A stretch of 64,000 nt of DNA from Thermoanaerobaculales bacterium (GCA_035358815.1 DAOPQC010000001.1:22100-86099); one strand, 5' to 3'; counted from the first letter of the stretch, positions 43,450 to 62,371 are shown. Translations and numbers: made by a program. Notes: generated from the letters alone by a model not told the origin.

Positions 43450-45850
43450 CGCTCCGGCGTTCCGGATCGCCGTCCTTGGCGCGCTGCTGGCCGCCGCCGT
43501 CGGCTGCTCGACCCAGCAGGCCGCGCAGGCCAGCAAGGAGGCGGTCAAACACGAGAACTGGGACGCCGCCGTCTACCACTACCTCGAGCTGGTGGCGAAG
43601 GAGCCGGAGAACCTCGAGTACCGGATCGGGCTCCGGCGCGCCCGCCAGAACGCCGCCCACGTCCACTTCCAGCGCGGCGTTGCCCTCCGCGACGCCGGTC
43701 GGGTGGTCGAGGCTCGCGACGAGGTCCAGATGGCGGTCCAGCTCGACCCGACCCACCAGTTCGCGGAGCAGGTCCTCGACGGCCTCAACAAGGAGATCGA
43801 GATCCTCTCCGGTCCCGGCGGCAAGGGCGAGCTCGAGGACCTGAAGCGCCAGGCCCGCGAGGCGAAGGTGAAGCCGCCGGTCCTCGACCCGGCGTCCAAG
43901 GAGCCGGTCACCCTGGTGTTCCCCAGCCCGAAGCCGGTCAAGGAGATCTACGACGCCATCGGCAAGGCGTACGGCTTCAACGTGATCTTCGATCCCAAGC
44001 TGAAGGACGACCGGCTCCCGGTCGAGCTGCGCGACGTCACCGCCGAGCGGGCGCTCGAGATCGTGATGCAGGCGGCCGGCCACTTCTACAAGGTGCTCGA
44101 CCCGAAGACGATCATCGTCGCCGAGGACAACCCGCAGAACCGGCGCGACTACGAGGACCTGGTCATCAAGACCTTCTTCCTGTCGAACGCCGACGTCAAG
44201 GAGGTCGACAAGCTGCTGCGCTCCTTGATCGAGGCGCGGCGGCTCTCGACCAACGAGCAGCTCAACGCGATCACGCTGCGCGACACCGCCGACAAGGTCG
44301 CGATCGCCGAGAAGCTGATCACGGTCAACGACAAGGCCAAGGCCGAGGTGCTGGTGGATGTCGAGCTGATGGAGGTCGACACCGGGGACCAGTCCGAGAT
44401 CGGGATGAGCCTCTCCACCTACAGCTTCATCCTGGCCGCCGACACGGCGCAGACCAGCCCGGACGCGCCGGAGGGCAGTTCCTTCCTGGACGACCTGTCG
44501 AACATCGCCCGCGAGAACGTGTTCATCAACGTGCCGTCGGTGACCATCAACCTCGTCAAGTCGAGCGGCAAGGCGTCGATCCTCGCCCAGCCGCAGCTGC
44601 GGATCACCGAGGGCGAGAAGGCCTCGCTGCACCTCGGCGACCGGGTGCCGATCCCGGTGACCTCTTTCAACACCTCGAACACCATCGGCGGCAACGTGGT
44701 GCCGATCACCTCCTTCCAGTACCAGGACATCGGCATCAAGATCGAGGTCGAGCCGCGGGTCCACCACAACCGTGAGGTCACGCTCAAGCTGACGGTCGAG
44801 GTCTCGCAGCTCGGCGACACCGTGCAGGTCGGTCCGGGTCAGGAGGCGGTGACGATCGGGACCCGCACCATCACCTCGGTGATCCGGCTGCGCAGCGGCG
44901 AGTCGAGCCTGCTGGCCGGCCTGATCCGCAAGGACACGACCTCCGGCTCGACCGAGATCCCGCTGCTGTCGGACATCCCGTACCTCGGCCGGCTGTTCAC
45001 CAACACCAAGAAGCAGACCAAGACCACCGATCTGGTGCTGACCCTGACCCCGCACATCATCCGCTTCCCGGCGATCGAGGAGGAGGACCTGGCGCCGGTC
45101 TGGGTGGGCACCGAGAGCCGGATCTCCTTCTTCGGCTCGAGCTCGCCGCGCGTGCAGTCCGGGACCTCGCCGCAGGGGCCGTTCGACTCGGGCGGTGAGG
45201 ACTACCAGGGCGACCAGGGCGAGAAGCCGTCCGAGGGCTCGGGGGAGGACGCGCCGGCGCCCTACGGCGTCCGCGGCCGGTCGGTCAGCCCGCGGCGGGT
45301 GACGCCGCCAACCGGTGACACCGGGGGCGTCGAGCTGGTTCCCAGGGGCGACAGCCGCGACACCTGGCCCGGGGATGACGGCGCGCCGCAGCAGCAGGCC
45401 GAGGAGACCAAGGCAGCGGCCGTGGTCGATGACAGCCGGCCACCGCTCATCATCGGCCTCGAGCCGGCGGTGGCGGCGCTGCCCAGCGGGAGCGAGATCG
45501 TGCTCCAGCTGGTGGTGAAGGGCGCGCCGGGCTCGTACCGGCTGCCGCTGGGCCTGTCGTTCGATCCGGGACGGGTGACCGTGCAGTCTTTCGAGCCGGC
45601 GCCCGGCGTCAACGTCATGGAGGGCAGCATCGAGCTCGACAACGGCTGGATGTCTCTCGACCTGGTGGTGCCGGCGGCCGACGACGGCGCTCGTGCCATC
45701 GGTGCGATCACGGTGCGGGCAGAGGCGCCCGGCCCGGTTCCCCTGGCCTTCACCTCGCCCGGCGCGACCATGTCCGACGGCACGGTGCTGCCGGTGGCGG
45801 CGAGCGACGGCGCGGTCTTCGTGTCCGCGGCCGGGGAGGGCGGGGGCTGA
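43406..45850 (+). CDS. Secretin (GspD/PilQ family) with an N-terminal lipoprotein-TPR module and a C-terminal cohesin-like extension
   Basis: 'LLAAAVGCS' lipobox. TPR-like helices occupy residues ~40-130. The canonical secretin C-domain runs 'ILAQPQLRITEGEKASLHLGDRVPIP...IPLLSDIPYLGRLF'. A ~250-aa tail follows. The start is uncertain because it overlaps the upstream gene. Confidence 0.85.
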   Translation: MTRRRTPVFRCLRTDAPAFRIAVLGALLAAAVGCSTQQAAQASKEAVKHENWDAAVYHYLELVAKEPENLEYRIGLRRARQNAAHVHFQRGVALRDAGRVVEARDEVQMAVQLDPTHQFAEQVLDGLNKEIEILSGPGGKGELEDLKRQAREAKVKPPVLDPASKEPVTLVFPSPKPVKEIYDAIGKAYGFNVIFDPKLKDDRLPVELRDVTAERALEIVMQAAGHFYKVLDPKTIIVAEDNPQNRRDYEDLVIKTFFLSNADVKEVDKLLRSLIEARRLSTNEQLNAITLRDTADKVAIAEKLITVNDKAKAEVLVDVELMEVDTGDQSEIGMSLSTYSFILAADTAQTSPDAPEGSSFLDDLSNIARENVFINVPSVTINLVKSSGKASILAQPQLRITEGEKASLHLGDRVPIPVTSFNTSNTIGGNVVPITSFQYQDIGIKIEVEPRVHHNREVTLKLTVEVSQLGDTVQVGPGQEAVTIGTRTITSVIRLRSGESSLLAGLIRKDTTSGSTEIPLLSDIPYLGRLFTNTKKQTKTTDLVLTLTPHIIRFPAIEEEDLAPVWVGTESRISFFGSSSPRVQSGTSPQGPFDSGGEDYQGDQGEKPSEGSGEDAPAPYGVRGRSVSPRRVTPPTGDTGGVELVPRGDSRDTWPGDDGAPQQQAEETKAAAVVDDSRPPLIIGLEPAVAALPSGSEIVLQLVVKGAPGSYRLPLGLSFDPGRVTVQSFEPAPGVNVMEGSIELDNGWMSLDLVVPAADDGARAIGAITVRAEAPGPVPLAFTSPGATMSDGTVLPVAASDGAVFVSAAGEGGG

Positions 45851-45851
45851 G

Positions 45852-46325
45852 ATGATCCGCCACCTGCACCGCCGCCGCAGCGAGAGGGGCTTCACGCTCG
45901 CTGAGCTGGTGATGGTCGCGGCGCTGATCGCGGTCCTCTCAACGATGGCCCTGCCGGTGGCCAAGTTCACCGTCAAGCGCCGCAAGGAGGCCGAGCTGCG
46001 GCTCGCGCTGCGGCTGATGCGCAACGCCATCGACGAGCACAAGCGCCTGTCCGACCAGGGCTTGATCCCGTTGACCCTGGGTGGCGAGGGCTACCCGGAG
46101 GACCTCGACGTGCTGGTGGAGGGCGTCGACCTGGTGGGGCAGGAGACCAAGCGCCGCTTCCTGCGCCGCATCCCGTGGGACCCGATGACCGGAGAGCAGG
46201 AGTGGGGCAAGCGGTCCTACCAGGACGACCCCGACTCTGACAGCTGGGGGAGCGAGAACCTCTACGACGTGTACTCGTTGTCGGACGGCACCGCCATCGA
46301 CGGCACGAAGTACAAGGACTGGTGA
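45852..46325 (+). CDS. GspG-like pseudopilin (prepilin-type N-terminal cleavage/methylation domain)
   Basis: ATG at 45852. The leader is 'MIRHLHRRRSERG|FTLAELVMVAALIAVL'. Confidence 0.8.
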   Translation: MIRHLHRRRSERGFTLAELVMVAALIAVLSTMALPVAKFTVKRRKEAELRLALRLMRNAIDEHKRLSDQGLIPLTLGGEGYPEDLDVLVEGVDLVGQETKRRFLRRIPWDPMTGEQEWGKRSYQDDPDSDSWGSENLYDVYSLSDGTAIDGTKYKDW

Positions 46326-46861
46326 GCATGAACATCCCGGATATCGGACTCGGGACCGCGGCCCTCCGCCGGGCGACCGCGAGCGAGCCCTGGGGCCCCG
46401 CCTCCGCCGGTCGCGGGCCGTCCGTCAGTCCGCGGCCCCCCGCCCGCGGCCGCCGGGCCGGCGGGTTCACGCTGATCGAGCTGATGGTCGTGGTCGCGAT
46501 CATCGGCATCCTCGCGGTGGTGGCGCTGCCGGCGATGCGGACGGCGCCCCTCAAGGCCCGCGAGGCGGTGCTCAAGGCCGACCTCTACCAGATCCGGTCA
46601 TGCATCGACCAGTACCTCGGCGACAAGGGCGAGTACCCGGAGTCGCTGCAGGGCCTGGTCGATGCCGGGTACCTGCGCTTCGTGCCGGTCGACCCGATCA
46701 CCCGGTCGGCCGACACCTGGGTCGAGCTCGAGGCCACGCCGACCGAGACCGAGGACCTCGAGCCGATCGAGGAGGACCTCGGCGGCACGGTGGGCATCAT
46801 CGACGTCAAGTCGGGGGCCGACGGAGTCGCCCTTGACGGCACGCTCTACTCGGACTGGTAA
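46322..46861 (+). CDS. gspG: GspG-like major pseudopilin with an unusually long predicted leader
   Basis: 'G|FTLIELMVVVAIIGILA' lies 46-48 codons after the only upstream in-frame starts (GTG 46322, ATG 46328). The C-terminal part, 'YPESLQGLVDAGYLRFVPVDPIT', is GspG-like. Confidence 0.7.
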   Translation: MSMNIPDIGLGTAALRRATASEPWGPASAGRGPSVSPRPPARGRRAGGFTLIELMVVVAIIGILAVVALPAMRTAPLKAREAVLKADLYQIRSCIDQYLGDKGEYPESLQGLVDAGYLRFVPVDPITRSADTWVELEATPTETEDLEPIEEDLGGTVGIIDVKSGADGVALDGTLYSDW

Positions 46862-46865
46862 CGGA

Positions 46866-47756
46866 ATGTCGTCGGGCGTGCGGGAACCGCGGATCGCTGA
46901 GAGCCAGCCGGGATCGGCGTCGTTCCCGCTCCCGTGCCCGTTCCCGCTCCCGGATGTGACATCGATCCGGTCGGCAGCGGCCTCGCGGTCGGGGCCCGTG
47001 GACACGGCACGGACTGGCCACCGGCGAGAAGTTGGGAACGGGGACGGGAACGGGAACGGGAACGCGGAGGGGGGCTACACCCTGGTCATCGTGGTGCTGG
47101 TGGTCGCCATCATGTCGATCATGATGGCGGTGGCGGTGCAGACCGTGGAGTTCCAGATGCGCCGCGAGCGGGAGGCCGAGCTGATCTTCCGCGGCCAGCA
47201 GTACGTCGAGGCGATCCGGCTGTACCGGATGAAGTACGGCCGCTACCCGATGCGGATGAAGGAGATCTGGGAGGCCAACCCGAGGGTCGTCCGCAAGCGG
47301 TGGAAGGACCCGATGACCGACTCCGAGAGCTGGGGCCTGATCTTCCTCGGCCAAGAGGGCCGGCGGATCGGCGCCGACAACCCGCTCGGGAACACCCCGA
47401 ACGCCACCCGGACCGTCACCTACGACGGCAGCGGCCTCGATGAAGGCGGGCGGGACGATGGGACGACGATGGGGCCGGACGGCGAGAAGATCGGGCCGAT
47501 CGTCGGCGTCCACTCCACCTCGTGCGAGGAGAGCATCAAGGTCTACGAGGGGCGGACCACCTACTGCGAGTGGCAGTTCGTGTTCCGTGAGGTGCGCGGG
47601 GTCGGCGGCGGCCGCCCCCCGTCGGGCGGCTACCATCCCGGCAAGACCCCCGTCGTGCCCGGTGGGGGCGAGGGCGGCGGGAGCGGCGGCGGCGGTGGCG
47701 GCGGTGGCGGCGGCGGGAGTCCGCCGCCGGGCTACACGCCGACCATCTACCCGTAA
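46866..47756 (+). CDS. Pseudopilin-like protein (no Glu5) with a Gly-rich C-terminal tail; the 5' leader is built from intergenic-repeat sequence
   Basis: 'GG|YTLVIVVLVVAIMSIMMAVAV' hydrophobic helix. The only in-frame starts upstream are ATG 46866 and GTGs at 46878, about 46956 and 46998. The tail reads 'GGGEGGGSGGGGGGGGGGGSPPPGY'. Confidence 0.6.
   Translation: MSSGVREPRIAESQPGSASFPLPCPFPLPDVTSIRSAAASRSGPVDTARTGHRREVGNGDGNGNGNAEGGYTLVIVVLVVAIMSIMMAVAVQTVEFQMRREREAELIFRGQQYVEAIRLYRMKYGRYPMRMKEIWEANPRVVRKRWKDPMTDSESWGLIFLGQEGRRIGADNPLGNTPNATRTVTYDGSGLDEGGRDDGTTMGPDGEKIGPIVGVHSTSCEESIKVYEGRTTYCEWQFVFREVRGVGGGRPPSGGYHPGKTPVVPGGGEGGGSGGGGGGGGGGGSPPPGYTPTIYP
46915..47066. repeat. C-rich/G-rich inverted hexamer arms lying inside the 5' region of a pseudopilin ORF
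   Basis: 'CGTTCCCGCTCCCGTGCCCGTTCCCGCTCCCGG' (46921-46952) faces 'GGGAACGGGGACGGGAACGGGAACGGGAACG' (47034-47064). Confidence 0.8.
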
Positions 47757-47785
47757 GGTCCCTCTGGTACACTCCGCGGCTGGAA

Positions 47786-49015
47786 ATGCGTAGACGAGGT
47801 CTCGATTCCCCGGCCCTCCTGGTCCACCCGACGCCCGGACGCAGCACCGTCACGGCCGGGGTCTGGCTCGCCGCCGGCTCGGCCCACGAGCCGCGGGCGC
47901 TGGCCGGGGCCACCCACATGGTGGAGCACCTGACGCTGCGCCGGTGCGGTGCCCGCGACCGCTTCGCCCTCGCCCGGCTCGTCGACCGCCTCGGCGGCGA
48001 CGTCGACGCGTGGACCAGCTCCGAGCTGATGGGCGTCACTGTGCAGACCACCGTCGACGCGATCGACGAGGGCCTCGCGCTGCTGGTGGACGCGATCCTC
48101 GAGCCCAGCTTCGACGCCGACGACTTCGATCTGGAGCGGCGGATCGCGCTGGCCGAGCTCGAGCTGCTGCAGGACGATCCGGCGGAGCGGGTCGAGGAGG
48201 ACCTGCTGCGCGCGGCGTGGGGGGACCACCCGCTGGCCCGGCCGGTGATCGGGACGGCGCGCTCGCTCGCGGCGCTGACGCCGCAGGCGCTGCGCCGCCA
48301 TCACGCCGCAATGGTGCAGCCGGGCCGCGTGCTGGCGGCGGTCACCGGCGACATTGACCGGGCGCAGCTTCAGGACCGGCTGCGGCGCCTGCCGCTGGCC
48401 GAGTCGGTGTCGCCGCCGAGCCTGCCGCCGCTGCGCTGGCGGGGCCGGGACCAGGTCGTGCGGCGGCCGGCAGCCGATCAGGCGCATTGCCGGCTCGCCT
48501 TCCCGGCAGTGGCAGCGGCCAGCCCCGACGCCACCGCGGTCGGCGTGCTCAATCGGATTCTCGGCGTCGGCGCGTCGAGCCGCCTGTTCCAGCGGCTGCG
48601 CGAGGTCGAGGGCCTCACCTACGACATCTGGTCGAGCGCGATGCTGCGCCGCGGCGGCGGCCTGCTCGAGATCGGCTGGGCGTGTGCGCCGGCGGTCCTC
48701 GACCAGGTGCGCACGCTGGTCAACGAGGAGCTGCGACGGATCGCGGTCGACCTCGTCGACGACGAGGTCGAGGTGGCGCGGGAGGGCCTGGCGCGCGGGC
48801 TCGCGATGGAGGTCGAGCTGCCGGCCGCCTACTGCGCGATGGACGTGGCCGAGCTGCTCGACCGTGGGCGCCGTTTCGACCTCGAGGTCGCCCGGGCGGA
48901 GATCGCGGCGGTCACCGCGCCGCAGGTGCAGCGGATCGCGGCCGAGCTGCTGCGGCCGGAGCGGATGGCGACGGCGCTGTGCGGCCCCGACGGGGTCTCG
49001 GCGCGGGTCGCGTGA
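47786..49015 (+). CDS. M16 (pitrilysin/insulinase) family zinc peptidase
   Basis: Inverted zinc motif HxxEH is present as '[11 protein letters not shown]'. Confidence 0.8.
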
Positions 49016-49458
49016 TGGTCGAGGTCCGGGTCCGCCGGCTCGCCCACGCCCAGGGGCTGCCCCTGCCCGACTACGCCACCGCCGGATCCGCCGGCGCCGA
49101 CCTGAGGAGCGCCGAGGCCGGAGACGTCGCGCTGGTGCCCGGCGGCCGGCTGGCGGTGGCGACCGGTCTGGTCGTCGAGATCCCACCCGGCTACGAGGCG
49201 CAGGTGAGACCCCGCTCCGGCCTCGCCCTCCACCACGGGCTGACGGTGGTCAACGCGCCGGGCACGATCGACGCCGACTACCGGGGCGAGGTCAAGGTGC
49301 TGCTCATCAACCTCGGCAGCGAGCCGGTGGTGATCCGGCGCGGCGACCGGATCGCCCAGCTCGTGGTCGCGCCGGTGACCCGCGCCGCCTTCCGCGACGC
49401 GGACGAGCTCGCCGGCAGCGACCGCGGGGCCGACGGCTTCGGCTCGACCGGGAGGTAG
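49015..49458 (+). CDS. dut: dUTP diphosphatase
   Basis: The ATG overlaps the upstream stop (GTGATG). Motifs 'GSAGADLRS' and '[26 protein letters not shown]'. Confidence 0.9.
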
Positions 49459-49461
49459 CGG

Positions 49462-50256
49462 GTGGAGGCGCTGGTGCTCGCCTCGGGGTCGTCGGGCAAC
49501 GCGGTGCTGCTGCGCTCCGGCCCCACCTCGCTGCTGGTGGACGCCGGGATCTCCGCTCTCCAGGTCCGCCGCCGGCTCGAGGTCTTCGCGCGCCGGATCG
49601 AGGACGTCACCGCGGTGCTGCTGACTCACGAGCACTCGGACCACGTGCGCGGCGTCGAGGTGCTGGCCAGGCGCCACCGGCTGCCGGTCTGGGCGACCGC
49701 CGGCACCTGGTCGGCGTTGTCAACGCGCAGCGAGGGCGGCGGCGAGCTGGCCACAGGCCGGACGACCGCGTTCGGCGCGATCCGGGTGACGCCCGTCTCG
49801 ACCAGCCACGACGCCCTCGAACCGGTCGCGATGGTCTTCGACGACGGCCGCCACCGGGTCGCGCTGTGCACCGACACCGGGACCTTCACCGCGCTCCTCG
49901 AGCACCGGCTGGCCGGCTGCGATCTGCTGCTGCTCGAGGCCAACCACGACGCCGACCTGCTGCGCGCCGGCCCTTACCCGTGGGAGCTCAAGCAGCGCAT
50001 CCTGTCGCGGCACGGGCACCTCGGCAACCACCAGGCGGCCGAGGCGGTCGAGCGGCTGGGATCGGCCGCGCTGCGCGCGGTGGTCGGCCTCCACCTCTCG
50101 GCCGAGAACAACCAGCCGGAGATGGTGCTCGAGGCCCTGCACGAGGGCGTCGGCGGCGCGGTGCCGGTGCACTGCGTGCCGCGCACCGAGATGCTGCGGA
50201 TCTCCCTCGAGGACACCCTGGTCTTCGAGCGCCGCGAGCTGCCGCTCGGGCAGTGA
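49462..50256 (+). CDS. MBL-fold metallo-hydrolase
   Basis: GTG start after 'GGGAGG'. 'LLTHEHSDHVRG' is the HxHxDH motif. Confidence 0.8.
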   Translation: MEALVLASGSSGNAVLLRSGPTSLLVDAGISALQVRRRLEVFARRIEDVTAVLLTHEHSDHVRGVEVLARRHRLPVWATAGTWSALSTRSEGGGELATGRTTAFGAIRVTPVSTSHDALEPVAMVFDDGRHRVALCTDTGTFTALLEHRLAGCDLLLLEANHDADLLRAGPYPWELKQRILSRHGHLGNHQAAEAVERLGSAALRAVVGLHLSAENNQPEMVLEALHEGVGGAVPVHCVPRTEMLRISLEDTLVFERRELPLGQ

Positions 50257-50296
50257 GATGGGGGACGGCCACGGAGGCGGACCGTCCTCCCGCCCG

Positions 50297-50388
50297 ACGT
50301 GAACCGCTGAGCGCGCAGAGAGCGCTGAGACCAGGGCCGCGCACTTCCAATGACCCTTCACCGCGTTCTCGGCGCCCTCCGCGGTTCG
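50297..50388 (+). repeat. ~90-nt hairpin-forming repeat element, copy 2
   Basis: 'ACGTGAACCGCTGAGCGCGCAGAGAGCGCTGAGACCAGGG...CACCGCGTTCTCGGCGCCCTCCGCGGTTCG'. Confidence 0.8.
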
Positions 50389-50446
50389 ATCGCTCCGCCC
50401 CTACGTGATGAAACCGTGCCACGAAGAAGAGAGCCCGGGCACGGAG

Positions 50447-50825
50447 GCGGGCGCGGAAGCGGGCGCGGAAGCGGGCGGGGGAGCAAGTCCACAACGGTGG
50501 CAGGTACCGCCATTGCGGTCATGATCAGTGGCGGAGCCAACCGAGCTTCACGGCAGGGCGGGAACGGGAACGGGAACGGGAACGGCTGGAGCCCCTATCC
50601 CCCAGATCCAAGATCCTCGTCGGAAGCGGGCGCGGAAGCGGGCGCGGAAGCGGGCGAGGGAGCAAGTCCACAACGGTGGCAGGTACCGCCATTGCGGTCA
50701 TGATCAGTGGCGGAGCCAACCGAGCTTCACGGCAGGGCGGGAACGGGAACGGGAACGGGAACGGCTGGAGCCCCTATCCCCCAGATCCAAGATCCTCGTC
50801 GGAAGCGGGCGCGGAAGCGGGCGAG
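50447..50825. repeat. Tandem direct repeat, 179-bp unit x ~2.1
   Basis: 'GAGCAAGTCC...' starts at 50481 and again at 50660. The units are near-identical and each contains (GCGGAAGCGGGC)n, GGTGGCAGGTACCGCCATTGCGG, (GGGAAC)4 and CAGATCCAAGATCC. Confidence 0.9.
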
Positions 50826-50907
50826 AGTCCTGGCGTTCTTCAACGCCTTGGCCGGCCTGCAGTCGAAAAGCGGTATCATGGAGGAACAGACGACGGAGGA
50901 GCGAGCC

Positions 50908-51675
50908 ATGACAACGGCGCGCCGGGTGACGTTGGTGGCGATCGTGGCGCTGGGCGTGGCGACTGCCGGCGCGGCCCAGACCGCGAGCCAGAAGTGTGTC
51001 GGCGCGGTGCACACGGCCTATCCCGAGGAGCCGGCGGTGTGGGTGGTCGCGGCCCACAGCGCGGCCGACCACAGCGAGCTCGAGTGGCGCTCGGCATCAG
51101 GCCGGGTCGGGGTGTGCCGGCTGGAGCCGGACGGCCGGATCTCGGACGTGAAGGCCACCGGGTTCGCGCAGCCGGCGGCCCCGGCGGCGGTGGAGCCGCA
51201 GGCCTTCGAGCCCTACCAGCTCACCTGCGAGTCCGAGCACGGCGGCCGCCACGAGTGCGAGATCGAGGGACCGGCAATCGTGGTCATGGTCGAGCAGCTC
51301 GGCGACGTCGACTGCATCGAGAACCTCAGCTGGGGCCAGGGCGAGGGCGCGATCTGGGTCGACGGCGGCTGCCGGGCGGTGTTCGAGGTGAGGCCCCGGC
51401 CGCCCAAGCTTGATCCGGGCACGCTACGCGGCCCGGCCGCCGGCGAGCCCGCGGCGGCCGAAGGGATGGCCCACCCCCGCTTCCGCGAGGCCCGTGCCCA
51501 GGACCGCTGCCGGGCCGCTGCCGCCGCCGGCGGGATGATGGTGCAGCGCGTGCTCGGCACCCGGATCGACGGGGCCGCGGTGGTCGTGTTGATGGAGGTC
51601 GCAAGCTGGAGCCAGCGCGGGGAGGTGACCTGCCGCTGGGACTCCGCCACCGACCAGGCGGTCATCGCGAGGTAG
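50908..51675 (+). CDS. DUF3011-domain secreted protein
   Basis: The ATG at 50908 lies 7 nt after 'GGAGGA'. Signal peptide. 'CESEHGGRHECEI...VEQLGDVDCIENLSWGQGEGAIWVDGGCRAVFEV' matches the DUF3011 cysteine pattern. Confidence 0.7.
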   Translation: MTTARRVTLVAIVALGVATAGAAQTASQKCVGAVHTAYPEEPAVWVVAAHSAADHSELEWRSASGRVGVCRLEPDGRISDVKATGFAQPAAPAAVEPQAFEPYQLTCESEHGGRHECEIEGPAIVVMVEQLGDVDCIENLSWGQGEGAIWVDGGCRAVFEVRPRPPKLDPGTLRGPAAGEPAAAEGMAHPRFREARAQDRCRAAAAAGGMMVQRVLGTRIDGAAVVVLMEVASWSQRGEVTCRWDSATDQAVIAR

Positions 51676-51823
51676 GGGGGACGAGAGGGGAGAGGGTCCC
51701 GGGACCCGTGGGTGGAGGGTCACGACCCGCCCGCTACCGCGCCCGCTTCCGTGCCCGCGCCCGCTCGTTCGTTCCGTCCTCGAGATCGCTTCGCGCCGAT
51801 GCTCTGGAGGCGCTCCCCGAGGG

Positions 51824-51898
51824 AGCCACCTTTGGCGATTTCGGGCCTCGAGCGATTCTTCAGAAGGCCCCCCGCCCCCGAAATCGCCAAAGATGGCA
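51824..51898. repeat. 22-bp inverted repeat (21/22 matches) with a 31-nt spacer, between convergent genes
   Basis: GCCACCTTTGGCGATTTCGGG (51824-51845) pairs with CCCGAAATCGCCAAAGATGGC (51877-51898). It occurs once in the window. Confidence 0.8.
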
Positions 51899-51939
51899 CG
51901 CCCGCGGGACGCGCACCCCTCGTGCTCGCCTGGCCTCCC

Positions 51940-52185
51940 GGGATCGGGAACGGGGACGGGAACGGGGACGGGAACGGGGACGGGAACGGGAGCGGGAACG
52001 AGGTACGGTACGGGCGGGGCGCTCTATTCCCGAGATCTCAGATCCCAGATCCTGGTCGGACGCGGAAGCGGATCCGACTTCCGGCTTCGCTCGAAGCTTC
52101 GCCGGGACGAGTCGCCTCCGGCTTCGCCGTGACAGGAGCGGGAGGGGGGCCTACCCCCTAGATCCTAGATCCTAGATCCTGCCCG
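51940..52185. repeat. Longest G3-tract hexamer array plus GATC heptamers
   Basis: 11 G3-4 tracts (GGGATCGGGAACGGGGACGGGAAC...) at 51940-52000. GATCTCA-GATCCCA-GATCCTG at 52033-52053. (TAGATCC)3 at 52157-52178. The reverse of the GTCACGGCG box lies at 52108-52125. Confidence 0.85.
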
Positions 52186-53394
52186 GGCCGGGAGGTGGTC
52201 CCCGACACGGCACACCAACCCCTTCAGGTACTCGGACTCCGGGAACGAGAGCAGCACCGGGTGGTCGGCAGGCTGGCCGAGCCGCTCCACCACCTGCGCC
52301 TCGACGCCGGCGTCCAGGGCGGCACCGGCGACGATGCTCTGGAACAGCTCGCCGCCGATCGCGCCCGAGCACGAGAAGGTCGCCAGCACGCCGCCCGCCT
52401 CGAGCAGCTTGAAGGCGAGCAGGTTGATGTCCTTGTAGCCGCGGGCCGCGCGCTCGCGCTGGCTGGCGGTGGCCGCGAACTTGGGCGGGTCGAGCACGAT
52501 CAGGTCGAAGGTGCGGCCGCGGTCGCGCAGGCCGCGCAGCACCTCGAACACGTTGCCCTCGACCAGCTCGCAGGTCTCCGCGGCGAGGCCGTTCAGCTCG
52601 AGGTTGGCGCGGGTCATCGCCAGCGCGTCGGCCGAGGCGTCGACCGCCAGCACCGAGGCAGCGCCGCCGGCCAGGGCGTGGACCGTGAAGCCGCCGCTGT
52701 AGCAGAAGGCGTCGAGCACCCTCCGTCCGGCCGCCAGCTCGCCGACGCGGCCGCGGTTGTTCCGCTGGTCGAGGTAGAGGCCGGTCTTGTGGCCGTGGTG
52801 GACGTCGACCCACAGCCGCAGGCCGCCCTCGCGGACCGCGATCCGGGGTGGCGGCTCCTCGCCGGCGAGCGGTCCGACCCGCGGCTCGAGGCCCTCGAGG
52901 GCGCGCACCTCGACGTCCGAGCGCTCCCACACCCGCTGCACCCCGGTCACGGCCGGCAGCAGGTTCGCGATCGGTGAGCGCCAGCGCTCGGCGCCGGCGG
53001 TGGCGAGCTGGATCACCAGGGTGTCGGCGTACCGGTCGACAATCACGCCGGGCAGGCCGTCGGCCTCGGCGTAGACCAGCCGGCAGGCGCCCTCAGGCCC
53101 GCCGGCCGCGGGCCCGCCGCGGGCTGCGATCGCGGCCTCGAGCCGGCGCGCGATCAGCGCCTCGTCGACCGGCTCGTCACGGAAGGTCCAGGCGCGGGCG
53201 CGGATCTGCGAGTGAGGGCTGTAGGCGGCGCGGGCGAGCAGCTCGCCGTCGGCCGACCGCACGTCGACCGTGTCGCCGGGGCCGGGGTCGCCCACGACCC
53301 GCGCGATCGCGCCGGAGAACACCCAGGGGTGGCGGCGCTTCAGCGACCGCTCGCGGCCGCGCCGCAGCCAGAGGGTGGGTGTGGGTGTCGACAT
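52165..53394 (-). CDS. rlmI: 23S rRNA (cytosine-C5) methyltransferase RlmI-like (PUA + class I SAM MTase)
   Basis: 'RRHPWVFSGAI' N-terminus and the SAM-binding segment 'VLDAFCYSGGFT'. 409 aa. Confidence 0.8.
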   Translation of the reverse strand: MSTPTPTLWLRRGRERSLKRRHPWVFSGAIARVVGDPGPGDTVDVRSADGELLARAAYSPHSQIRARAWTFRDEPVDEALIARRLEAAIAARGGPAAGGPEGACRLVYAEADGLPGVIVDRYADTLVIQLATAGAERWRSPIANLLPAVTGVQRVWERSDVEVRALEGLEPRVGPLAGEEPPPRIAVREGGLRLWVDVHHGHKTGLYLDQRNNRGRVGELAAGRRVLDAFCYSGGFTVHALAGGAASVLAVDASADALAMTRANLELNGLAAETCELVEGNVFEVLRGLRDRGRTFDLIVLDPPKFAATASQRERAARGYKDINLLAFKLLEAGGVLATFSCSGAIGGELFQSIVAGAALDAGVEAQVVERLGQPADHPVLLSFPESEYLKGLVCRVGDHLPARAGSRI

Positions 53395-53481
53395 CAGCGC
53401 TCTCCGTGCGTCCGGAGTCTACACCTCGGGTGACGGACTTCGGGGCTTGGAGCTTGGGGTTCGGGACACCGCCAGCTCGGC

Positions 53482-53572
53482 GTGAACCGCCGAGAGCGCT
53501 GAGAGCGCAGAGGAGTCGCGAGGAAACGGTGAGACGACCTTACTCCGCGTTTTTGGCGCCCCCCGCGGTTCA
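53482..53572 (+). repeat. ~90-nt hairpin-forming repeat element, copy 3 (most divergent)
   Basis: 'GTGAACCGCCGAGAGCGCTGAGAGCGCAGAGG...CTCCGCGTTTTTGGCGCCCCCCGCGGTTCA'. Confidence 0.7.
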
Positions 53573-53722
53573 ATTCCAACGCGCCCACCCCCCGAGGCCT
53601 CACCACGACGACGCCTGAACGCCACGGGTGGGGAAGGGGAGGTGCACCGACGGACGTGGAGCGGTCAACCTGACTCGGGAACGGGAACGGGGACGGGAAC
53701 GGGCAGCGACACTCGACCGTGG

Positions 53723-56700
53723 TCAGCCGCGCTCGCACCACTCCCTGGCGTTCTGGAACAGCTTGAGCCACGGCGAGGCGGCGAGCGTGCGCTGCCAGTC
53801 GCGCGGCATCCACCCCCATTGCCAAGTCAAGAAGGTCCGCTCCGGATGGGGCATCAGGGCGAGGTGGCGGCCGTCCGGCGAGGTCAGGGCCGCGATCCCG
53901 TGCGGCGAGCCGTTGGGGTTGAGCGGGTAGGCCTCGGTCGGCGCGCCGCCGTCGTCCGCGAAGCGGATCGGCGCCAGGTGATCGGCGAGCACCCGCTCGA
54001 GCACCGCCTGCTCAGGGAAGCAGGCGCGGCCCTCGCCGTGCTGCACCCAGATGCCGAGCGTCGAGCCGGCCATGCCGCGCAGCATCACCGCCGGGCTGTC
54101 GAGGATGGTGACGGTGGCGAAGCGCGACTCGAAGCGGCCGGAGGCGTTCTGGATGAAGCGCGGCTGCGCGGTGTCCGGCAGCCCGCGCCAGGGCAGCCAG
54201 CCGAGCAGCGCGAACAGCTGGCAGCCGTTGCAGACGCCGAGCGAGAAGGTGTCGGGCCGCTCGTAGAAGGCGTCGAACTGGCCGCGCAGGCCGTCGTTGA
54301 AGCGGATCACCCCGGCCCAGCCCTTGGCCGAGTCAAGGACGTCGGCGTAGGAGAAGCCGCCGACCGCCGCGAGGCCGCGGAACCGCTCGAGCGTCACCCG
54401 GCCGGCCAGCAGATCGGACATCGTGACGTCCCACGGCTCGAAGCCGGCGAGGTGGAAGGCGGCAGCCATCTCGCGGTCGCCGTTGGAGCCCTCCTCGCGC
54501 AGGATCGCCACCGGCAGCTTGCGGCGGCGGCGCAGCACCGCCGGCGGGGTCGGCACGGGCGAGAAGGCGAGGGCGTAGGCCGGCGGCCGCCGGTGGCGCA
54601 GCCCCGCCCGTTCCTCGGCGACGCAGACCGGGTCGGCCTGCAGCCGGTCGAGCTCGAAGGAGGTCGCTTCCCAGAGTCCGCGCAGCTCGCGCATCTGCTC
54701 CTCGAGCACGAGCTCGCCGGCAACGCCGATCCGGATGACGGGCGCGGCCAGCGTGCGCCCGATGGCGACGCACGGCACGTCGCGGCCGGCGAACGCGGCC
54801 AGCGCCTCGTCGAGGTCGCCGGGGTCGACCTCGAGGACGAGGCCCAGCTCCTCGGCGAACAGCACCGCGATCGGGTCGGCCCCGGCGGGCTCGGTGCGGA
54901 GGTCGACCTCGATCCCGCAGTCGCCGGCGAAGGCCATCTCGAGCAGGGTCGTGACCAGGCCGCCGTCGGAGCGGTCGTGGCCGGCGCTGACCAGCCCGCC
55001 GGCGATCAGCTCCTGGACCGCGGCGAAGGCCCGGGCGAGCAGGCCGGAGTCGTCGACGTCGGGCGGCTCCTCGCCGACCTGGCCGAAGACCTGGGCCAGC
55101 GCCGAGCCGCCGAGCCGGCGCCGCCCGCCGCCGAGGTCGACCCAGAGCAGCACGCCGCAGCCGGGCAGCTTGAGGTCCGGGGTCACGGTGGCGGTGATGT
55201 CCGGGCAGCCGACGTAGGCCGAGACGACGAGCGAGCCGGGCGCCTTGACGACCTCGCCGTCGGGTGCGAGCGCGGCCATCGAGATCGAGTCCTTGCCGCC
55301 GTCGACGGCGATGCCCAGCGTGATCATCAGGTCGCGCATGGCGACCGCCGCATCGTGGAGCGCCGCGCCCTCGCCGGGCAGCTTGGCCGCCCACATCCAG
55401 TTCGCCGAGCAGCGCACGTCGGGCAGCGCGCTGACCCGCGCCCAGACCAGGTTGGTGAGCGCCTCGCCGACCGTGAGGCGGGCCATCGCCGCCGGGTCGA
55501 GCAGGCCCTTGATCGGCTGCTCACCGATCGCGGTCGCGCCGCCGGTCGTACCGAGGTGGGAGTGGGCGATGACCGCGACGTCGGCGACCGTGAGCTGGAG
55601 CGGGCCGGCGCAAGGCTGGCGCGCGATCAGGCCGGTCACCGCGCGGTCGACCTTGGTGGTGAGGAAGCGCTTGGATCCCACCGACAGCAGCCGCAGCACC
55701 CGCTCGAGCGCGGCGCGCACGGTCAGGCCCTCGGGCAGCGCGAGCGGCGCGGGCCGCGGTTGCACGCGATCGAGCGCGAAGGTCTTCTGGGGCATGTCGC
55801 CGAGCACGTCGGCGAGGGCGAGGTCGACCGGGGTCGAGCCGTCGCGCTCGTCGTGGACCACCACCCGGCCGTCGCCGGTGACGCGGCCGACGAGGGCGAC
55901 CGGGACCTTCTCGCGCTCGCACAGGGCGCGGAAGGCCGCGGCGTGCTCGGGCTTGAGCAGCAGGGCGTCGTTCTCCTGGTACTCGGCGCCCCAGATCTCG
56001 AGCACCGACAGGGTGTCGTCGCCGACCGGCATCGAGCGGATCTCGATCGTGGCTCCGGCCGGGTCGACGATTTCCTTGAGGACGTTGCAGTTGCCGCCGG
56101 CGCCCTGGTCGTGGATGCTGACGATCGGGTTGTCGTCGCCGAGCTCGGAGCAGGCGCGGATGACGCGGTTGAGCTTCTGCTCCATCTCGGCGTCGCCGCG
56201 CTGCACGGCGTTGAAGTCGAGCTCGGCCGCGTTCTCGCCCTGCACCATGCTCGAGGCGGCGCCGCCGCCCATGCCGATCCGGTAGGCCGGACCGCCGACC
56301 TTGACCACCAGCATGCCGGGCTCGGGCGGCTGCTTGGCGGCGTGGCGCGCGTCGAGGCGGCCGATGCCGCCCGAGAACATGATCGGCTTGATCCACTCGC
56401 GGCGCTCGCCATTCGGCAGCCGCAGCCCGAACGAGCGGGTGTAGCCGGCGATCACCGGCTCGCCGAACTTGTTGCCGTAGTCCGAGGCGCCGTTGGAGGC
56501 CTCGATCTCGATTTGGAGCGGCGGCGCCAGGTTGGAAGGGTAGGGGAACCCGGGGTCCTCCCACGGCAGCTGGTAGCCCGGGATGCGCAGGTTGCCGACG
56601 CAGTAGGCGGCGGTCCCGGCCGTGAACAGCGACCCGCGGCCGGTGGCGTGGGTGTCGCGCAGGCGGCCGCCGGTGCCGGTCTCCGCGCCCGGGAAGGGCG

Positions 56701-57640
56701 CCACCCCGGACGGGAAGTTGTGAGTCTCGGCCGTGAACAGCAGGTGCTCGTCGATGCTGCGCGGGACGAGCGGCGAGGGCGCTCCGGCCGTGGCCGGGTG
56801 GAGGACGCGAACCCGGTGGCCGCGGATCGCGCTCGAGTTGTCGGCAAACGCGATGACGCTGTTGTTGGGGTTGGCCTCGAGCGTCTGCCGCACGACGCCG
56901 ATCAGGTGGTCGGGGGCGGCGGCGCCGTCGATGACGAGCCGGCCCTTGAAGAACCAGTGCCGCGAGTGCTCGCTGTTGGACTGGGCGATGTCGAAGCACT
57001 CGACGCTGGTCGGGTTGCGGCCGAGCCGGCGGGCGAACAGCTCGGTGTAGTAGTCGAGGTCGCGGTCGTCGAAAGCGAGCCCGAGCTCGCGGTTGATGCG
57101 CGCGAGCGCCGCGCGGCCCTGCTCGAGCACCGGCACCTCGACCACCGGGTCCGGCTCGACGCCGGTCGCGAACGAGCGCAGCGGCTCGGGGTACCGGCAC
57201 TCGGTCATCCGGTCGTGGATCGAGGACAGGAACGCAGCGGGCTGGTGGTCGGCGAGCGGGCGCGAGCTGCGCAGCAGGTAGCGCCGGGAGCGCTCGATGC
57301 GGAGGACGTCGGCGAGGCCGCAGGCATGGCAAACCGCGACCGCGTTGGTCGACCAGGCTGTGGTGAAGCTGAGGCGCGGCCCCACCTCGAGAATCGGGCC
57401 GGCCGCCTCCTCGAGGAAGCTCGTCGGCCGGCAGCGCTCGGGCTCGAAGGTTTCGGCGAGCAGCCACCTCAGGGCCTCGAGCTCGGCGGCGGACAGCGGG
57501 CGACGGAGCGCGATGTTGAAGCAGTGCTCGGTGTCGACCGCCGTGACCTCGGGTCCGATCAGCGTGCGGGCGGTGTCGAGCAGCGTCCGGCGCTGGCCCT
57601 CGGGCACGCCCGGCGCCCGATAGAGGTGCTGCAGCTCCAT
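53723..57640 (-). CDS. purL: Phosphoribosylformylglycinamidine synthase, single-chain large form
   Basis: The ATG at 57640 (MELQHLYR) lies inside ORF 53723..57775. 1305 aa. AIRS-like repeats and a C-terminal glutaminase domain ('GVCNGCQ'). Confidence 0.9.
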   Translation of the reverse strand: MELQHLYRAPGVPEGQRRTLLDTARTLIGPEVTAVDTEHCFNIALRRPLSAAELEALRWLLAETFEPERCRPTSFLEEAAGPILEVGPRLSFTTAWSTNAVAVCHACGLADVLRIERSRRYLLRSSRPLADHQPAAFLSSIHDRMTECRYPEPLRSFATGVEPDPVVEVPVLEQGRAALARINRELGLAFDDRDLDYYTELFARRLGRNPTSVECFDIAQSNSEHSRHWFFKGRLVIDGAAAPDHLIGVVRQTLEANPNNSVIAFADNSSAIRGHRVRVLHPATAGAPSPLVPRSIDEHLLFTAETHNFPSGVAPFPGAETGTGGRLRDTHATGRGSLFTAGTAAYCVGNLRIPGYQLPWEDPGFPYPSNLAPPLQIEIEASNGASDYGNKFGEPVIAGYTRSFGLRLPNGERREWIKPIMFSGGIGRLDARHAAKQPPEPGMLVVKVGGPAYRIGMGGGAASSMVQGENAAELDFNAVQRGDAEMEQKLNRVIRACSELGDDNPIVSIHDQGAGGNCNVLKEIVDPAGATIEIRSMPVGDDTLSVLEIWGAEYQENDALLLKPEHAAAFRALCEREKVPVALVGRVTGDGRVVVHDERDGSTPVDLALADVLGDMPQKTFALDRVQPRPAPLALPEGLTVRAALERVLRLLSVGSKRFLTTKVDRAVTGLIARQPCAGPLQLTVADVAVIAHSHLGTTGGATAIGEQPIKGLLDPAAMARLTVGEALTNLVWARVSALPDVRCSANWMWAAKLPGEGAALHDAAVAMRDLMITLGIAVDGGKDSISMAALAPDGEVVKAPGSLVVSAYVGCPDITATVTPDLKLPGCGVLLWVDLGGGRRRLGGSALAQVFGQVGEEPPDVDDSGLLARAFAAVQELIAGGLVSAGHDRSDGGLVTTLLEMAFAGDCGIEVDLRTEPAGADPIAVLFAEELGLVLEVDPGDLDEALAAFAGRDVPCVAIGRTLAAPVIRIGVAGELVLEEQMRELRGLWEATSFELDRLQADPVCVAEERAGLRHRRPPAYALAFSPVPTPPAVLRRRRKLPVAILREEGSNGDREMAAAFHLAGFEPWDVTMSDLLAGRVTLERFRGLAAVGGFSYADVLDSAKGWAGVIRFNDGLRGQFDAFYERPDTFSLGVCNGCQLFALLGWLPWRGLPDTAQPRFIQNASGRFESRFATVTILDSPAVMLRGMAGSTLGIWVQHGEGRACFPEQAVLERVLADHLAPIRFADDGGAPTEAYPLNPNGSPHGIAALTSPDGRHLALMPHPERTFLTWQWGWMPRDWQRTLAASPWLKLFQNAREWCERG

Positions 57641-57687
57641 GGCGGTGGTTGTAGCAGGTCGCTGGCGCTTGTGCCAGACCCGGTGTC

Positions 57688-57731
57688 CCTCCGTTCCCGT
57701 TCCCGTTCCCGTTCCCGTTCCCGAACTCCCC
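57688..57731. repeat. (GTTCCC)5 array in the purL/purM divergent promoter region
   Basis: 'CCCTCCGTTCCCGTTCCCGTTCCCGTTCCCGTTCCCGAACTCCCC'. Confidence 0.85.
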
Positions 57732-57848
57732 GTCCATTTGATTCCGCTCGGGCGCCACCCGTGACTGGTTGTCATCGTCGCCCCGGGCGGCTATGTTCGA
57801 GTAGGCTCGTGGGCGCACGAGCTCATCGAACGGGGGGCACGAGGCCGC

Positions 57849-58907
57849 ATGACGACGTATCGCGATTCGGGGGTGGACATCGACGCCCAGGACCAGGCGC
57901 TGGCCCGGGTCAAGGAGCTGGTGCGGTCGACCTACACCGACGGCGTGCTGTCGGACCAGGGCTCGTTCGGCGGCATGTTCCGGCTCCCGACCAAAGGCCT
58001 CAAGGAGCCGGTCCTGGTGGCCTCGGCTGACGGGGTCGGCACCAAGCTCAAGGTGGCGTTCGCCGCCGGCCGCCACGACACGGTCGGCCAGGACCTCGTC
58101 AACCACTGCGTCAACGACATCCTGGTCCTGGGCGCGCGGCCGCTCTTCTTCCTCGATTACCTGGCGACCGGCCGGCTCGACCCTGCGGTCGCGGCGTCGG
58201 TGATCGGCGGCGTCGCGACCGCCTGCAAGGAGCGCGGGATCGCGCTGCTCGGCGGCGAGACCGCCGAGATGCCGGGCTTCTACGCCGACGGCGAGTACGA
58301 CCTCGCCGGCTTCATCGTCGGGGTCGTCGACCGCAAGCGGATCCTCGACGGCTCGGCGGTCGAGGAGGGCGACGTGCTGGTCGGGCTGCCGTCGACCGGC
58401 CTCCACACCAACGGCTACTCGCTCGCGCGCAAGGTGCTGTTCGAGGTCCTCGGCTGCCGGCCGGACCAGGTCCTGCCCGAGCTCGGCGTGAGTGTGGCCG
58501 ACGAGCTGCTGAAGGTCCATCGCAGCTACCTCGAGCCGGTGTGGCCGCTGCTCGAGGAGGGGTGGGTGCACGCCGCCGCGCACGTCACCGGCGGCGGCAT
58601 CACCGACAACCTGCCGCGGGTGCTGCCCGAGGGCGCGCGGGCGCGGATCAAGGTCGGCGCCTGGGAGGTCCCGCCGGTGTTCCGGCTGCTCGCCGAGCGC
58701 GGCGAGGTTCCCGAGGACGACATGTGGCGGACCTTCAACCTCGGCGTCGGCATGGTCCTGGTGGTGCCGCCCAAGGTCCTCGGCAAGGTGCTCGAGTCGC
58801 TCAAGCGCGACGGCTGCCCTGGTTTCCCCATGGGCAACGTCATCGCCGGCGCGCGCGGCGTCGAGTACGACCACCCCCCGGCCGGTTTCCCGAGCGGCTG
58901 GCGGTAG
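57849..58907 (+). CDS. purM: Phosphoribosylformylglycinamidine cyclo-ligase (AIR synthetase)
   Basis: 'YRDSGVDIDA', 'DGVGTKL' and 'VNDILVLGARPLFFLDY'. Confidence 0.9.
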   Translation: MTTYRDSGVDIDAQDQALARVKELVRSTYTDGVLSDQGSFGGMFRLPTKGLKEPVLVASADGVGTKLKVAFAAGRHDTVGQDLVNHCVNDILVLGARPLFFLDYLATGRLDPAVAASVIGGVATACKERGIALLGGETAEMPGFYADGEYDLAGFIVGVVDRKRILDGSAVEEGDVLVGLPSTGLHTNGYSLARKVLFEVLGCRPDQVLPELGVSVADELLKVHRSYLEPVWPLLEEGWVHAAAHVTGGGITDNLPRVLPEGARARIKVGAWEVPPVFRLLAERGEVPEDDMWRTFNLGVGMVLVVPPKVLGKVLESLKRDGCPGFPMGNVIAGARGVEYDHPPAGFPSGWR

Positions 58908-59028
58908 GCCTTCGTCCCGCATCGGCCTGTTCGCCGGTTGTGCTGGGACGGCCGGCGGGCACAAACAATAGTGCAGGCCGCCAGCGCGGCCGTCGTCGAC
59001 GGGCCCAACGACTGAAGGGCGGGAGCGT

Positions 59029-59077
59029 GTGGTCGGCGTTCTGCCGGAACATCAACCACCGTGCCTGGCACCATTAC
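59029..59077 (+). repeat. Left copy of the direct repeat flanking the hicA/hicB-HEPN cassette
   Basis: GTGGTCGGCG..CCGGAACATCAACCACC-GTGCCTGGCACCA. The core CCGGAACATCAACCACC at 59044-59060 recurs at 60544-60560. Confidence 0.75.
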
Positions 59078-59138
59078 TGGCACCATTACAGAAGAAAACG
59101 AAAGACTTGGTGGTCATGGTCTTGACATTCGGACAAAA

Positions 59139-59378
59139 ATGTCCGAGATTGTTGATGTGACCGGGGCGGAGTTCATCAAGAAGGTCAAGAAGCTGGGGCG
59201 GCGACGTGGAGTGTCGGTCGAGTTCATCGTCGAGCGAGGGAAAGGCAGCCACGGAACCCTCTACTTCGGCGGCCGTTTCACGGTCGTCAAGCACAGAGCT
59301 GCCGAGCTGACGCCGGGACTGCTCCACGCGATGCTGAAGCAGCTCGGCCTGGCGCTCGATGACCTCCGCGGTGAGTAG
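59139..59378 (+). CDS. hicA: HicA-family mRNA interferase toxin
   Basis: The ATG at 59139 lies inside ORF 59061..59378. 'GKGSHGTLYFGGRFTVVKHRAAELTPGLLHAMLKQLGL' is typical of HicA (YcfA-like). Confidence 0.8.
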   Translation: MSEIVDVTGAEFIKKVKKLGRRRGVSVEFIVERGKGSHGTLYFGGRFTVVKHRAAELTPGLLHAMLKQLGLALDDLRGE

Positions 59379-59387
59379 GAGCGAGAC

Positions 59388-60449: not shown

Positions 60450-60450
60450 G

Positions 60451-60575
60451 GTGGTCGGCGGACACTCCGCGGTCGGCGCACCGAAGCGCAAACCGCACAG
60501 TCGGTGGCGTATCTTGCCAACCCTCTGGTTGGAACGGCCGTGACCGGAACATCAACCACCTCACCCGGCACCACC
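60451..60575 (+). repeat. Right copy of the direct repeat flanking the hicA/hicB-HEPN cassette
   Basis: GTGGTCGGCG (60451-60460, immediately after the hicB stop), a 78-nt extra segment, then CCGGAACATCAACCACC-TCACCCGGCACCA (60544-60573). Confidence 0.75.
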
Positions 60576-60654
60576 TTCGCGAATGCTCGACGTTGCGGCG
60601 GCCGGTTTGAGCTGCACACGCATCATCGCCCGCTGGTCAGTGCGCGCCTTGACC

Positions 60655-62322: not shown

Positions 62323-62342
62323 GGCTCCCCCCCTCGATGAAG

Positions 62343-62371
62343 AAGATAAGTCTTGTGACAATTTCTGTCAA
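62343..62371 (-). promoter_or_regulatory. Candidate sigma-70 promoter of the Xre-ImmA/PIN operon, overlapped by a TGACA-N5-TGTCA operator-like palindrome
   Basis: The minus strand reads TTGACA (62371-62366), a 17-nt spacer, TATCTT (62348-62343), 20 nt including the SD, then ATG 62322. The palindrome TGACA(62356-60)/TGTCA(62366-70) overlaps the -35 element and spacer. Confidence 0.4.

Follow-up and report, generated by a model that had tools for sequence, protein, structure and literature searches.

Polar, pairing arrays of CGG-anchored hexamers in the intergenic spacers of a Thermoanaerobaculales bacterium

We analyze a family of tandem hexamer arrays that occupies the intergenic spacers of a 64,000-nt stretch of a Thermoanaerobaculales genome (hereafter, the window), and the main new observation of this work is the polarity and the pairing of these arrays. 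C-type arrays, which read CCGNNN on the plus strand, lie toward the left-hand gene of a gap and G-type arrays toward the right-hand gene, regardless of the orientation of either gene. The fixed polarity of the arrays causes the spacers to read as long imperfect palindromes. The description with the best support is that of a mosaic of spacer microsatellites that is polar, is driven by slippage and forms palindromes. The ability of many of these arrays to form G-quadruplexes (G4), which had drawn attention to them in a sequence-only reading of the window, is a sequence property of the dominant repeat unit that does not define the family, and it may be subject to some constraint.

The purM and malic-enzyme proteins encoded in the window show full identity to those of MAGs assigned to Thermoanaerobaculales (Acidobacteriota), and the organism is uncultured. 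To delimit the spacers, a gene map was derived from codon usage and checked against public gene calls. The window has a GC content of about 71% and contains 19 canonical G4 motifs (G3+N1-7), about 12 of which stem from hexamer arrays. All 19 are intergenic, with intergenic DNA making up 13% of the window. In 300 dinucleotide-preserving shuffles the spacers held 2.65 ± 1.6 motifs, with a maximum of 8, versus the 19 observed, and coding DNA, which contains none, held 7.2 ± 2.5. Within the window, intergenic G4-motif density therefore exceeds what composition predicts, and the refuting condition set in the sequence-only reading does not hold there. The arrays listed there are all present, at most a few bases from where it had placed them, and 12 hexamer arrays, with 4-10 tracts each, satisfy the canonical pattern it had assigned to them. 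No G3N3 arrays were detected in 80 purM loci of other Acidobacteriota (1.29 Mb), and tandem repeats with periods of 5-12 nt occur at 0.59 per kb in the window versus 0.10 per kb in 80 related loci. The array observation is confirmed as real and highly non-random.

The repeat family was compiled by searching for (CGGNNN) in at least three units, and 30 genuine spacer arrays were kept. Their units comprise CGGGAA (46), CGGAAG (28), CGGGCG (22), CGGGCA (11), CGGGAG (9), CGGGGA (9) and others. Type I arrays, made up of CGGGAA and its loop variants CGGGGA, CGGGAG and CGGGAT, are G4-capable. Type II arrays follow the pattern (CGGAAG·CGGGCG)n, with GGG every 12 nt, and roughly half of the arrays in the family, (CGGAAG/CGGGCG/CGGGCA/CGGAGA)n, carry GGG every 12 nt or lack it, and are not G4-capable. 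A Ca. Sulfomarinibacteraceae MAG (L001), the nearest relative among the genomes collected (76% purM identity), contains arrays (CGGAGA)5.5 and (CCGCGT)4.5 that share the same period and the same CGG anchor without a G3 tract. Given that roughly half of the arrays in the window and those in L001 are not G4-capable, the family is not defined by G4 capacity. The earlier proposal of a repeat family that carries G4 motifs to spacers hence holds for the intergenic restriction of the motifs and fails for the definition of the family. The sequence (GGGAAC)4 was found in at least 120 metagenome stretches with GC contents of 33-75%, which indicates that the unit is not unique to this organism, while the density of its arrays is. 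A further sequence, (CGGAAGCGGGCG)3, was named beside (GGGAAC)4 and the focal 10-unit array. A literature string search for the repeat returned no bacterial report.

The focal array (51939-51998, plus strand) is a G-type array of 10 units (CGGGAT, CGGGAA, CGGGGA and CGGGAG) that forms a canonical G4 motif on the plus strand. From 51940 to 51996 it reads GGGATC GGGAAC (GGGGAC GGGAAC)x3 GGGAGC GGG, with 10 G3-4 tracts, instead of the 11 previously counted, loops of 2-3 nt and a G4Hunter score of 1.81. The gap that contains it is convergent, with a DUF3011 gene on one side and a PUA/SAM methyltransferase gene on the other. Its inverted partner, a C-type (type II) array on the minus strand (51728-51763), lies 53 nt past the DUF3011 stop codon, and both arrays are paired with each other in the MFE and centroid folds. 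The spacer core between them (51764-51938) is a dispersed element that recurs with 78.6% identity in another convergent gap (L095:3189-3402) and partially in L096. It encloses an inner hairpin (51810-51914; L095:3250-3350) with a 17-bp stem, CCACCTTTGGCGATTTC / GAAATCGCCAAAGATGG, that is identical in both copies, the loops having diverged. This hairpin is a candidate bidirectional 3'-end structure, both copies being in convergent gaps. The hexamer arrays at the ends of the core differ among copies, with 10 units here, about 3 in L095 and 8 in L096. The fold of the entire focal gap modestly outperforms shuffled sequences (z = -1.7). On the right edge of the gap, C-rich heptamer arrays (TCCCAGA and CCTAGAT; 52028-52180, minus strand) overlap the methyltransferase stop codon.

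Hexamer arrays elsewhere in the window occur both singly and in pairs. Single G-type arrays on the plus strand are found at 4854-4887 (6 G-tracts, about 60 nt upstream of the enoyl-CoA hydratase start, predicted to form G4), at 24911-24958, where ddl and NamZ (formerly DUF1343) diverge, and at 53676-53705, 18 nt from the purL stop and C-rich on the purL sense strand. On the minus strand, an array that is C-rich on the plus strand lies 139 nt past the enoyl-CoA hydratase stop (5930-5965; G4 predicted on the minus strand), a hybrid array of type I and type II units, also C-rich on the plus strand, lies 27 nt past a stop codon (35320-35367), and a (GTTCCC)5.5 array in the divergent purL/purM gap (57688-57731), G-rich on the purL sense strand, sits 48 nt upstream of the purL ATG. 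The assignment of two arrays to the divergent ddl/NamZ and purL/purM gaps was correct. Inverted pairs combine a C-type array at 23590-23625 with a G-type array at 23656-23691, just past the ddl stop and 30 nt apart, and a C-type array at 46921-46952 with a G-type array at 47034-47064. The former (23590-23691) is predicted to form a hairpin of -70.4 kcal/mol (z = -3.4) and the latter (46921-47064) shows hairpin z-scores of -4.3 on the plus strand and -5.3 on the minus strand; one strand among these two pairs stands at -1.9. A third pair, at 17949-18034, joins a C-type type II array (17949-17984) to a G-type array with 3 tracts (18017-18034) in a weak predicted hairpin (z = -0.5 and -1.8), and a convergent gap (1887-2171) has C-type arrays on its left (1887-1950) and a G-type type II array on its right (2130-2171). 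A complete spacer module is tandemly duplicated at 50442-50823 (plus strand) in two 179-bp copies with 99% identity, each containing a 12-mer array, a unique core, a (CGGGAA)4.5 array and C-rich heptamers. The genes flanking arrays encode glycosyltransferases, enoyl-CoA hydratase, ddl, malic enzyme, folE, purL and purM, and have no functional theme in common.

The polarity rule is followed by 24 of the 30 arrays and, when evaluated by gap, 11 gaps fit the rule, none contradict it and two are tied (p about 0.001). Whenever arrays of both types share a gap in the window, the order is C-then-G (5:0). The same order predominates (8:1) in independent metagenome contigs of other organisms recovered with (GGGAAC)4, for a combined ratio of 13:1 (13 of 14 adjacent pairs, p = 0.002). 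Arm spacing in these contigs goes down to 6-46 nt, which amounts to plain hairpins with microsatellite stems. A gene-edge test on 80 metagenome loci containing (GGGAAC)4, using crude ORF calls, yielded 10 of 15 cases in agreement with the rule, which is not significant; for metagenome loci it was replaced by the C/G order test, which needs no gene calls. The possibility that the polarity reflects Rho loading (rut sites) was considered and rejected, as GC skew at spacer edges is close to zero (mean -0.03, with 25 of 44 edges negative). It follows that polarity belongs to the arrays and not to spacer composition.

All inverted pairs are in gaps where at least one gene ends (2 convergent and 3 co-directional). 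When folded with ViennaRNA using G4 energies, paired arrays, including the focal array with 51728-51763, are predicted to form long hairpins on both strands. Among the 12 G4-capable arrays, 4 (the focal array among them) are predicted to fold as hairpins and the 8 isolated ones as G4. The spacers also contain 9-mers, small dispersed elements and G-rich heptamers, with units such as GGATCTA, GGATCTG, GGGGATA, GGGGCTG and TCAGGGG at 1819-1844, 5770-5790, 8175-8206, 23694-23723 and 4892-4916, and further sites at 50591-50617, 52028-52052, 52157-52180, L213:495-530 and L214:3893-3940. The polarity of the heptamers is opposite to that of the hexamers: where they adjoin or overlap stop codons, the sense strand is the G-rich one (1819, 5770, 8175, 23694, 52157, the purL stop in L213, and L214:3892), and as a result the full spacer reads as a nested palindrome. 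Several heptamer arrays are themselves G4 motifs.

Comparison among assemblies indicates that arrays change by whole units. The same sequence is present in many metagenome assemblies, the organism having been assembled many times from anaerobic-digester metagenomes (among them JGI 3300025730, 3300010346 and ENA ERZ795025). Assemblies L081 and L083 show no mismatches to the window over 16 kb, yet they have 6-nt unit insertions at the arrays in 50559 and 50738, and array indels of 6 or 12 nt are the sole differences between assemblies with no mismatches over this length. Within the 50442-50823 duplication, hexamer counts range from 4.5 to 5.5 among assemblies, with each copy varying independently. 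The focal array is two units (12 nt) shorter in assembly L082, which also lacks the junction between the 179-bp copies and hence perhaps has a single copy. Eight other arrays are unchanged in length at 0.2% divergence; the arrays are slippage-prone, yet not hypermutable. Array density is much lower in a relative (L213) that shares a 90%-identity purM protein cluster with the window. The purL/purM array retains there its place and orientation, with different units and exactly 4 tracts, and the array after the purL stop is absent, with heptamers in its stead. Tract counts in the window run 4, 5, 5, 5, 5, 5, 6, 6, 6, 7, 10 and so on, over only 16 type I arrays. All 12 variant sites inside type I arrays fall in the loop A's (positions 5-6), and none in CGGG, across 56 internal units. 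AT-to-GC bias accounts in part for this loop-only variation, which is unlikely to have arisen by chance even when that bias and the non-independence of events are taken into account; we estimate its probability at about 0.01 to 0.001.

The hexamer arrays are one module of a lineage-specific mosaic, composed of period-6/12 CGG units, G-rich heptamers and small hairpin elements, that occupies nearly all long intergenic gaps and is kept out of coding DNA. A dispersed element of about 130-180 nt is present in three copies with 74-90% similarity (6100-6231 on the minus strand, and 50287-50420 and 53480-53590 on the plus strand); it contains the 9-mer repeat GTGAACCGCTGAG(A/C)GCGCAGAGAGCGCTGAG, and its copies adjoin hexamer arrays. 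Another element, GTCACGGCGT.GTGCAGAGCACGAAGCCGGATCCGTTCCCG, occurs in two copies with 93% identity (1855-1921 and 5808-5874), and a related 38-mer is doubled at 35420-35492. Tandem units of 43-45 nt with the palindrome GGTGCC(T/A)GGCACC (4691-4774 and 5976-6066) lie on both sides of the enoyl-CoA hydratase gene in inverted orientation, with 85% complementarity. A related sequence, CTGGCACCATTA, is doubled upstream of hicA; further sites in this group are 59065-59089 and 20515-20530. The TGGCAC...TGC hairpin motif (4691-4774, 59065-59089 and upstream of purL) resembles the -24 box of sigma-54 promoters; it was rejected as such a promoter because its GG-to-GC spacing is one base off the consensus.

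Scans for conventional signals returned little. No match to Rfam families at gathering score and no tRNA genes were found in the entire 64-kb window. In the 40 kb comprising positions 1-20000 and 44001-64000, hairpin-plus-T sites resembling terminators were not more frequent than in shuffled sequences, which suggests that termination in this organism is non-canonical. The strong array hairpins are not followed by a T-run and do not qualify as intrinsic terminators. Sigma-70 promoters were also at chance level in the same 40 kb; among the three matches obtained, TTGTCA-17-TATGTT (57769-57797) sits between the purL/purM hexamer array and purM, about 50 nt ahead of the purM start. Two regions of lower GC content were also noted. 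At 12044-15403 (GC 62-66%), diverged 126-nt DNA repeats encode the 12 LVIVD repeats of a 1,119-aa protein; next comes, in the opposite orientation, a HepT/nucleotidyltransferase toxin-antitoxin pair (15556-16204, minus strand). A second region (59139-64000, continuing in L081) is a lower-GC island (58-68%) with hicA/hicB, an HTH/peptidase M78 pair and a type I restriction-modification system (HsdR-like helicase and HsdM); its spacers have no hexamer arrays.

The role that we prefer for the arrays, tentatively and at a level that falls somewhat short of probable, is that of structured elements that bound transcription units at their ends. The arrays are (CGGGAA)n microsatellites, with loop variants, that gain and lose whole units and turn over between relatives. 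Upon unwinding or transcription of the DNA, paired arrays, such as the focal array and 51728-51763, would zip into hairpins or cruciforms that tolerate shifts in register, and such hairpins could provide 3'-end structure, termination or RNA stabilization at transcription-unit ends. In a region without canonical hairpin-plus-U terminators, array hairpins may act as such boundaries, and the unpaired arrays (8 of 12) would stay free to form G4 on the G-rich strand. Several observations weigh against a boundary role. The array hairpins have no U-tract, the predicted folds of the whole focal gap (z = -1.7) and of the 17949-18034 pair stand little above shuffles, 4 of the 8 unpaired G4-capable arrays lie in divergent promoter gaps, in which a terminator would serve no purpose, and variation restricted to loops (12 of 12) is more readily accounted for by a G4-type constraint than by pure hairpins or neutrality. 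An extension of this reading, in which hexamers and heptamers form a strand-symmetric boundary system that insulates neighbouring transcription units in both directions, with a hairpin/G4 switch in the transcript and a strength tuned by slippage, would follow the nested-palindrome order (stop codon, G-heptamers, C-hexamers, core, G-hexamers, C-heptamers, next gene), and we consider it a long shot.

Other explanations can be weighed against the same data. If the arrays were simply neutral or selfish microsatellites, with slippage-prone units expanding where tolerated and any structure being incidental, one would expect the whole-unit indels between clonal assemblies, the many unit variants with adjoining periods of 6, 7, 9 and 12, the quick gain and loss between relatives and the presence of (GGGAAC)4 in those at least 120 metagenome stretches, unrelated and spanning 33-75% GC. 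We deem this reading unlikely, as neutral slippage does not predict gene-edge polarity, the 13:1 C-then-G order or the absence of tract mutations, and a hexamer, which preserves the reading frame, is nonetheless absent from coding DNA. The invariance of the G-tracts, with variable loops, is better accommodated if the arrays are kept as G4 regulators, whose G-rich strand would fold to modulate transcription, translation or replication of neighbouring genes. In support of this view, the motif is canonical, with G4Hunter scores of 1.2-1.9, the 19 motifs are all intergenic and depleted from coding DNA, 12 of the 16 type I arrays have at least four tracts, polymorphic arrays keep at least four tracts in both length variants, the orthologous purL/purM array of L213 has exactly 4, isolated arrays are predicted as G4 and related heptamer repeats form G4 in vitro (PMC4692102). 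Furthermore, in all four array-bearing divergent gaps the array nearest to the start (those of enoyl-CoA hydratase, an rmlD-like gene, NamZ and purL) is G-rich on the sense strand and lies 47-62 nt upstream. Against it, half of the family arrays and those of L001 lack canonical G4 capacity, hairpin pairing is predicted to sequester 4 of the 12 G4-capable arrays (the focal array among them), the adjacent genes have no function in common and no function has been found for the Xanthomonas repeats either (PMC4692102). Polarity, moreover, tracks the gene edge and not the direction of transcription, so that the G-rich strand is sense upstream of genes and template downstream of them, which a single G4 mechanism cannot explain. 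We view the G4 interpretation as partly supported at the sequence level, and a regulatory role as unlikely.

Polarity and closeness to gene edges would follow automatically if C-type and G-type arrays were the inverted ends of foldback or MITE-like mobile elements dispersed between genes, since a fixed end sequence yields the C-then-G order in both insertion orientations. The focal core and its flanking arrays do recur in L095 (78.6%, convergent gap) and partly in L096, inverted 55-nt copies of composite modules, 85% complementary, lie on either side of the enoyl-CoA hydratase gene, and other dispersed spacer elements exist in 2-3 copies. Yet most of the stretches that separate paired arrays, 6 to 180 nt long, are unrelated in sequence, no target-site duplication or transposase was identified, and some gaps have only G-type arrays in direct orientation. 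Judged as a MITE, the focal element has one further core copy (L095, 78.6%) with array ends of unequal length, and most cores are unrelated. We regard a mobile mosaic as distinctly unlikely. The invariance of CGG in all units, and the presence of GGA in most, could also be read as the signature of binding-site arrays for a protein recognizing CGG or GGA at 6-bp/6-nt spacing, such as a nucleoid protein or an RNA-binding regulator. No candidate binding protein was identified, the arrays adjoin unrelated housekeeping genes and their units differ between close relatives, and this explanation appears very improbable. The boundary role is our preferred, if tentative, reading.

The organization of these spacers has parallels in several known systems. 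The REP/BIME elements of enterobacteria are based on an imperfect palindromic unit of about 35 nt that is mobilized by a RAYT transposase; they are located at gene 3' ends, form hairpins and have been proposed to stabilize mRNA 3' ends and to contribute to termination. As in REP/BIME, spacers in the window are assembled from a few short repeats, in variable combinations and both orientations, that form hairpins at gene 3' ends. They differ in being made of tandem hexamers, with palindromy arising only between separate arrays. The closest precedent, which runs counter to the suggestion that such a family would be unusual in bacteria, is found in the G4-forming intergenic repeats of Xanthomonas and Nostoc. 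Rehm et al. (2015) reported GGGAATC repeats in Xanthomonas and GGGGA(C/T)T repeats in Nostoc that form G4 in vitro (PMC4692102). These repeats are about 90% intergenic, vary in unit number, frequently appear as inverted pairs and lie near one neighbouring ORF whatever its orientation, and their function was not identified (PMC4692102). Like them, the hexamer arrays consist of a G-rich tandem unit with a conserved G-tract and a variable loop, are strongly non-coding, sit beside unrelated housekeeping genes, turn over between close relatives and often form inverted pairs capable of adopting stem-loops. In contrast, the unit is here a hexamer, CGGGAA, instead of the heptamer GGGNATC, the G-rich strand is near the 3' neighbour (10 of 12 arrays, as counted from distances) instead of the 5' neighbour, non-G4 12-mer arrays are co-resident and the host belongs to the Acidobacteriota. 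Over only 16 arrays, a preference for exactly four units is not evident. The Xanthomonas polarity is nevertheless seen in the heptamers of the genome studied here (such as GGATCTA and GGGGATA). We conclude that the arrays are of the same kind as the Xanthomonas and Nostoc repeats, and that they differ from them in their 6-nt unit, their reversed polarity, their non-G4 sub-family and their phylum.

Cyanobacterial STRR heptamers (cited in PMC4692102) and the long SSRs of large high-GC genomes (PMC4060949) have been described in compositional surveys. They resemble the present arrays in that an excess of 6-9-nt tandem units in spacers is confined to particular lineages, and differ in that CGG-anchored hexamers, a polarity rule and a nested palindrome are not reported there (PMC4692102, PMC4060949). 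Across 1,424 prokaryotic chromosomes, G-patterns are generally at normal representation (PMC4060949), which makes an enrichment of this sort uncommon, though precedented. The Neisseria pilE G4, like other bacterial G4 regulators known from one locus, is a single conserved site whose mechanism has been demonstrated (cited in PMC4692102). The arrays share with the pilE G4 the presence of a canonical G3 motif in non-coding DNA beside a gene, and depart from it in being tandem, variable and present by the dozens.

G4-capable tandem repeats that fill bacterial spacers have been characterized in very few lineages. To these, the present analysis adds a system from a different phylum, with a different unit length and with a non-G4 sub-family in the same register, whose polarity is opposite both to that of the Xanthomonas repeats and to that of the heptamers in the same genome. 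This contrast allows one to ask whether the selected property is G4 folding, the formation of hairpins between inverted arrays, or neither.
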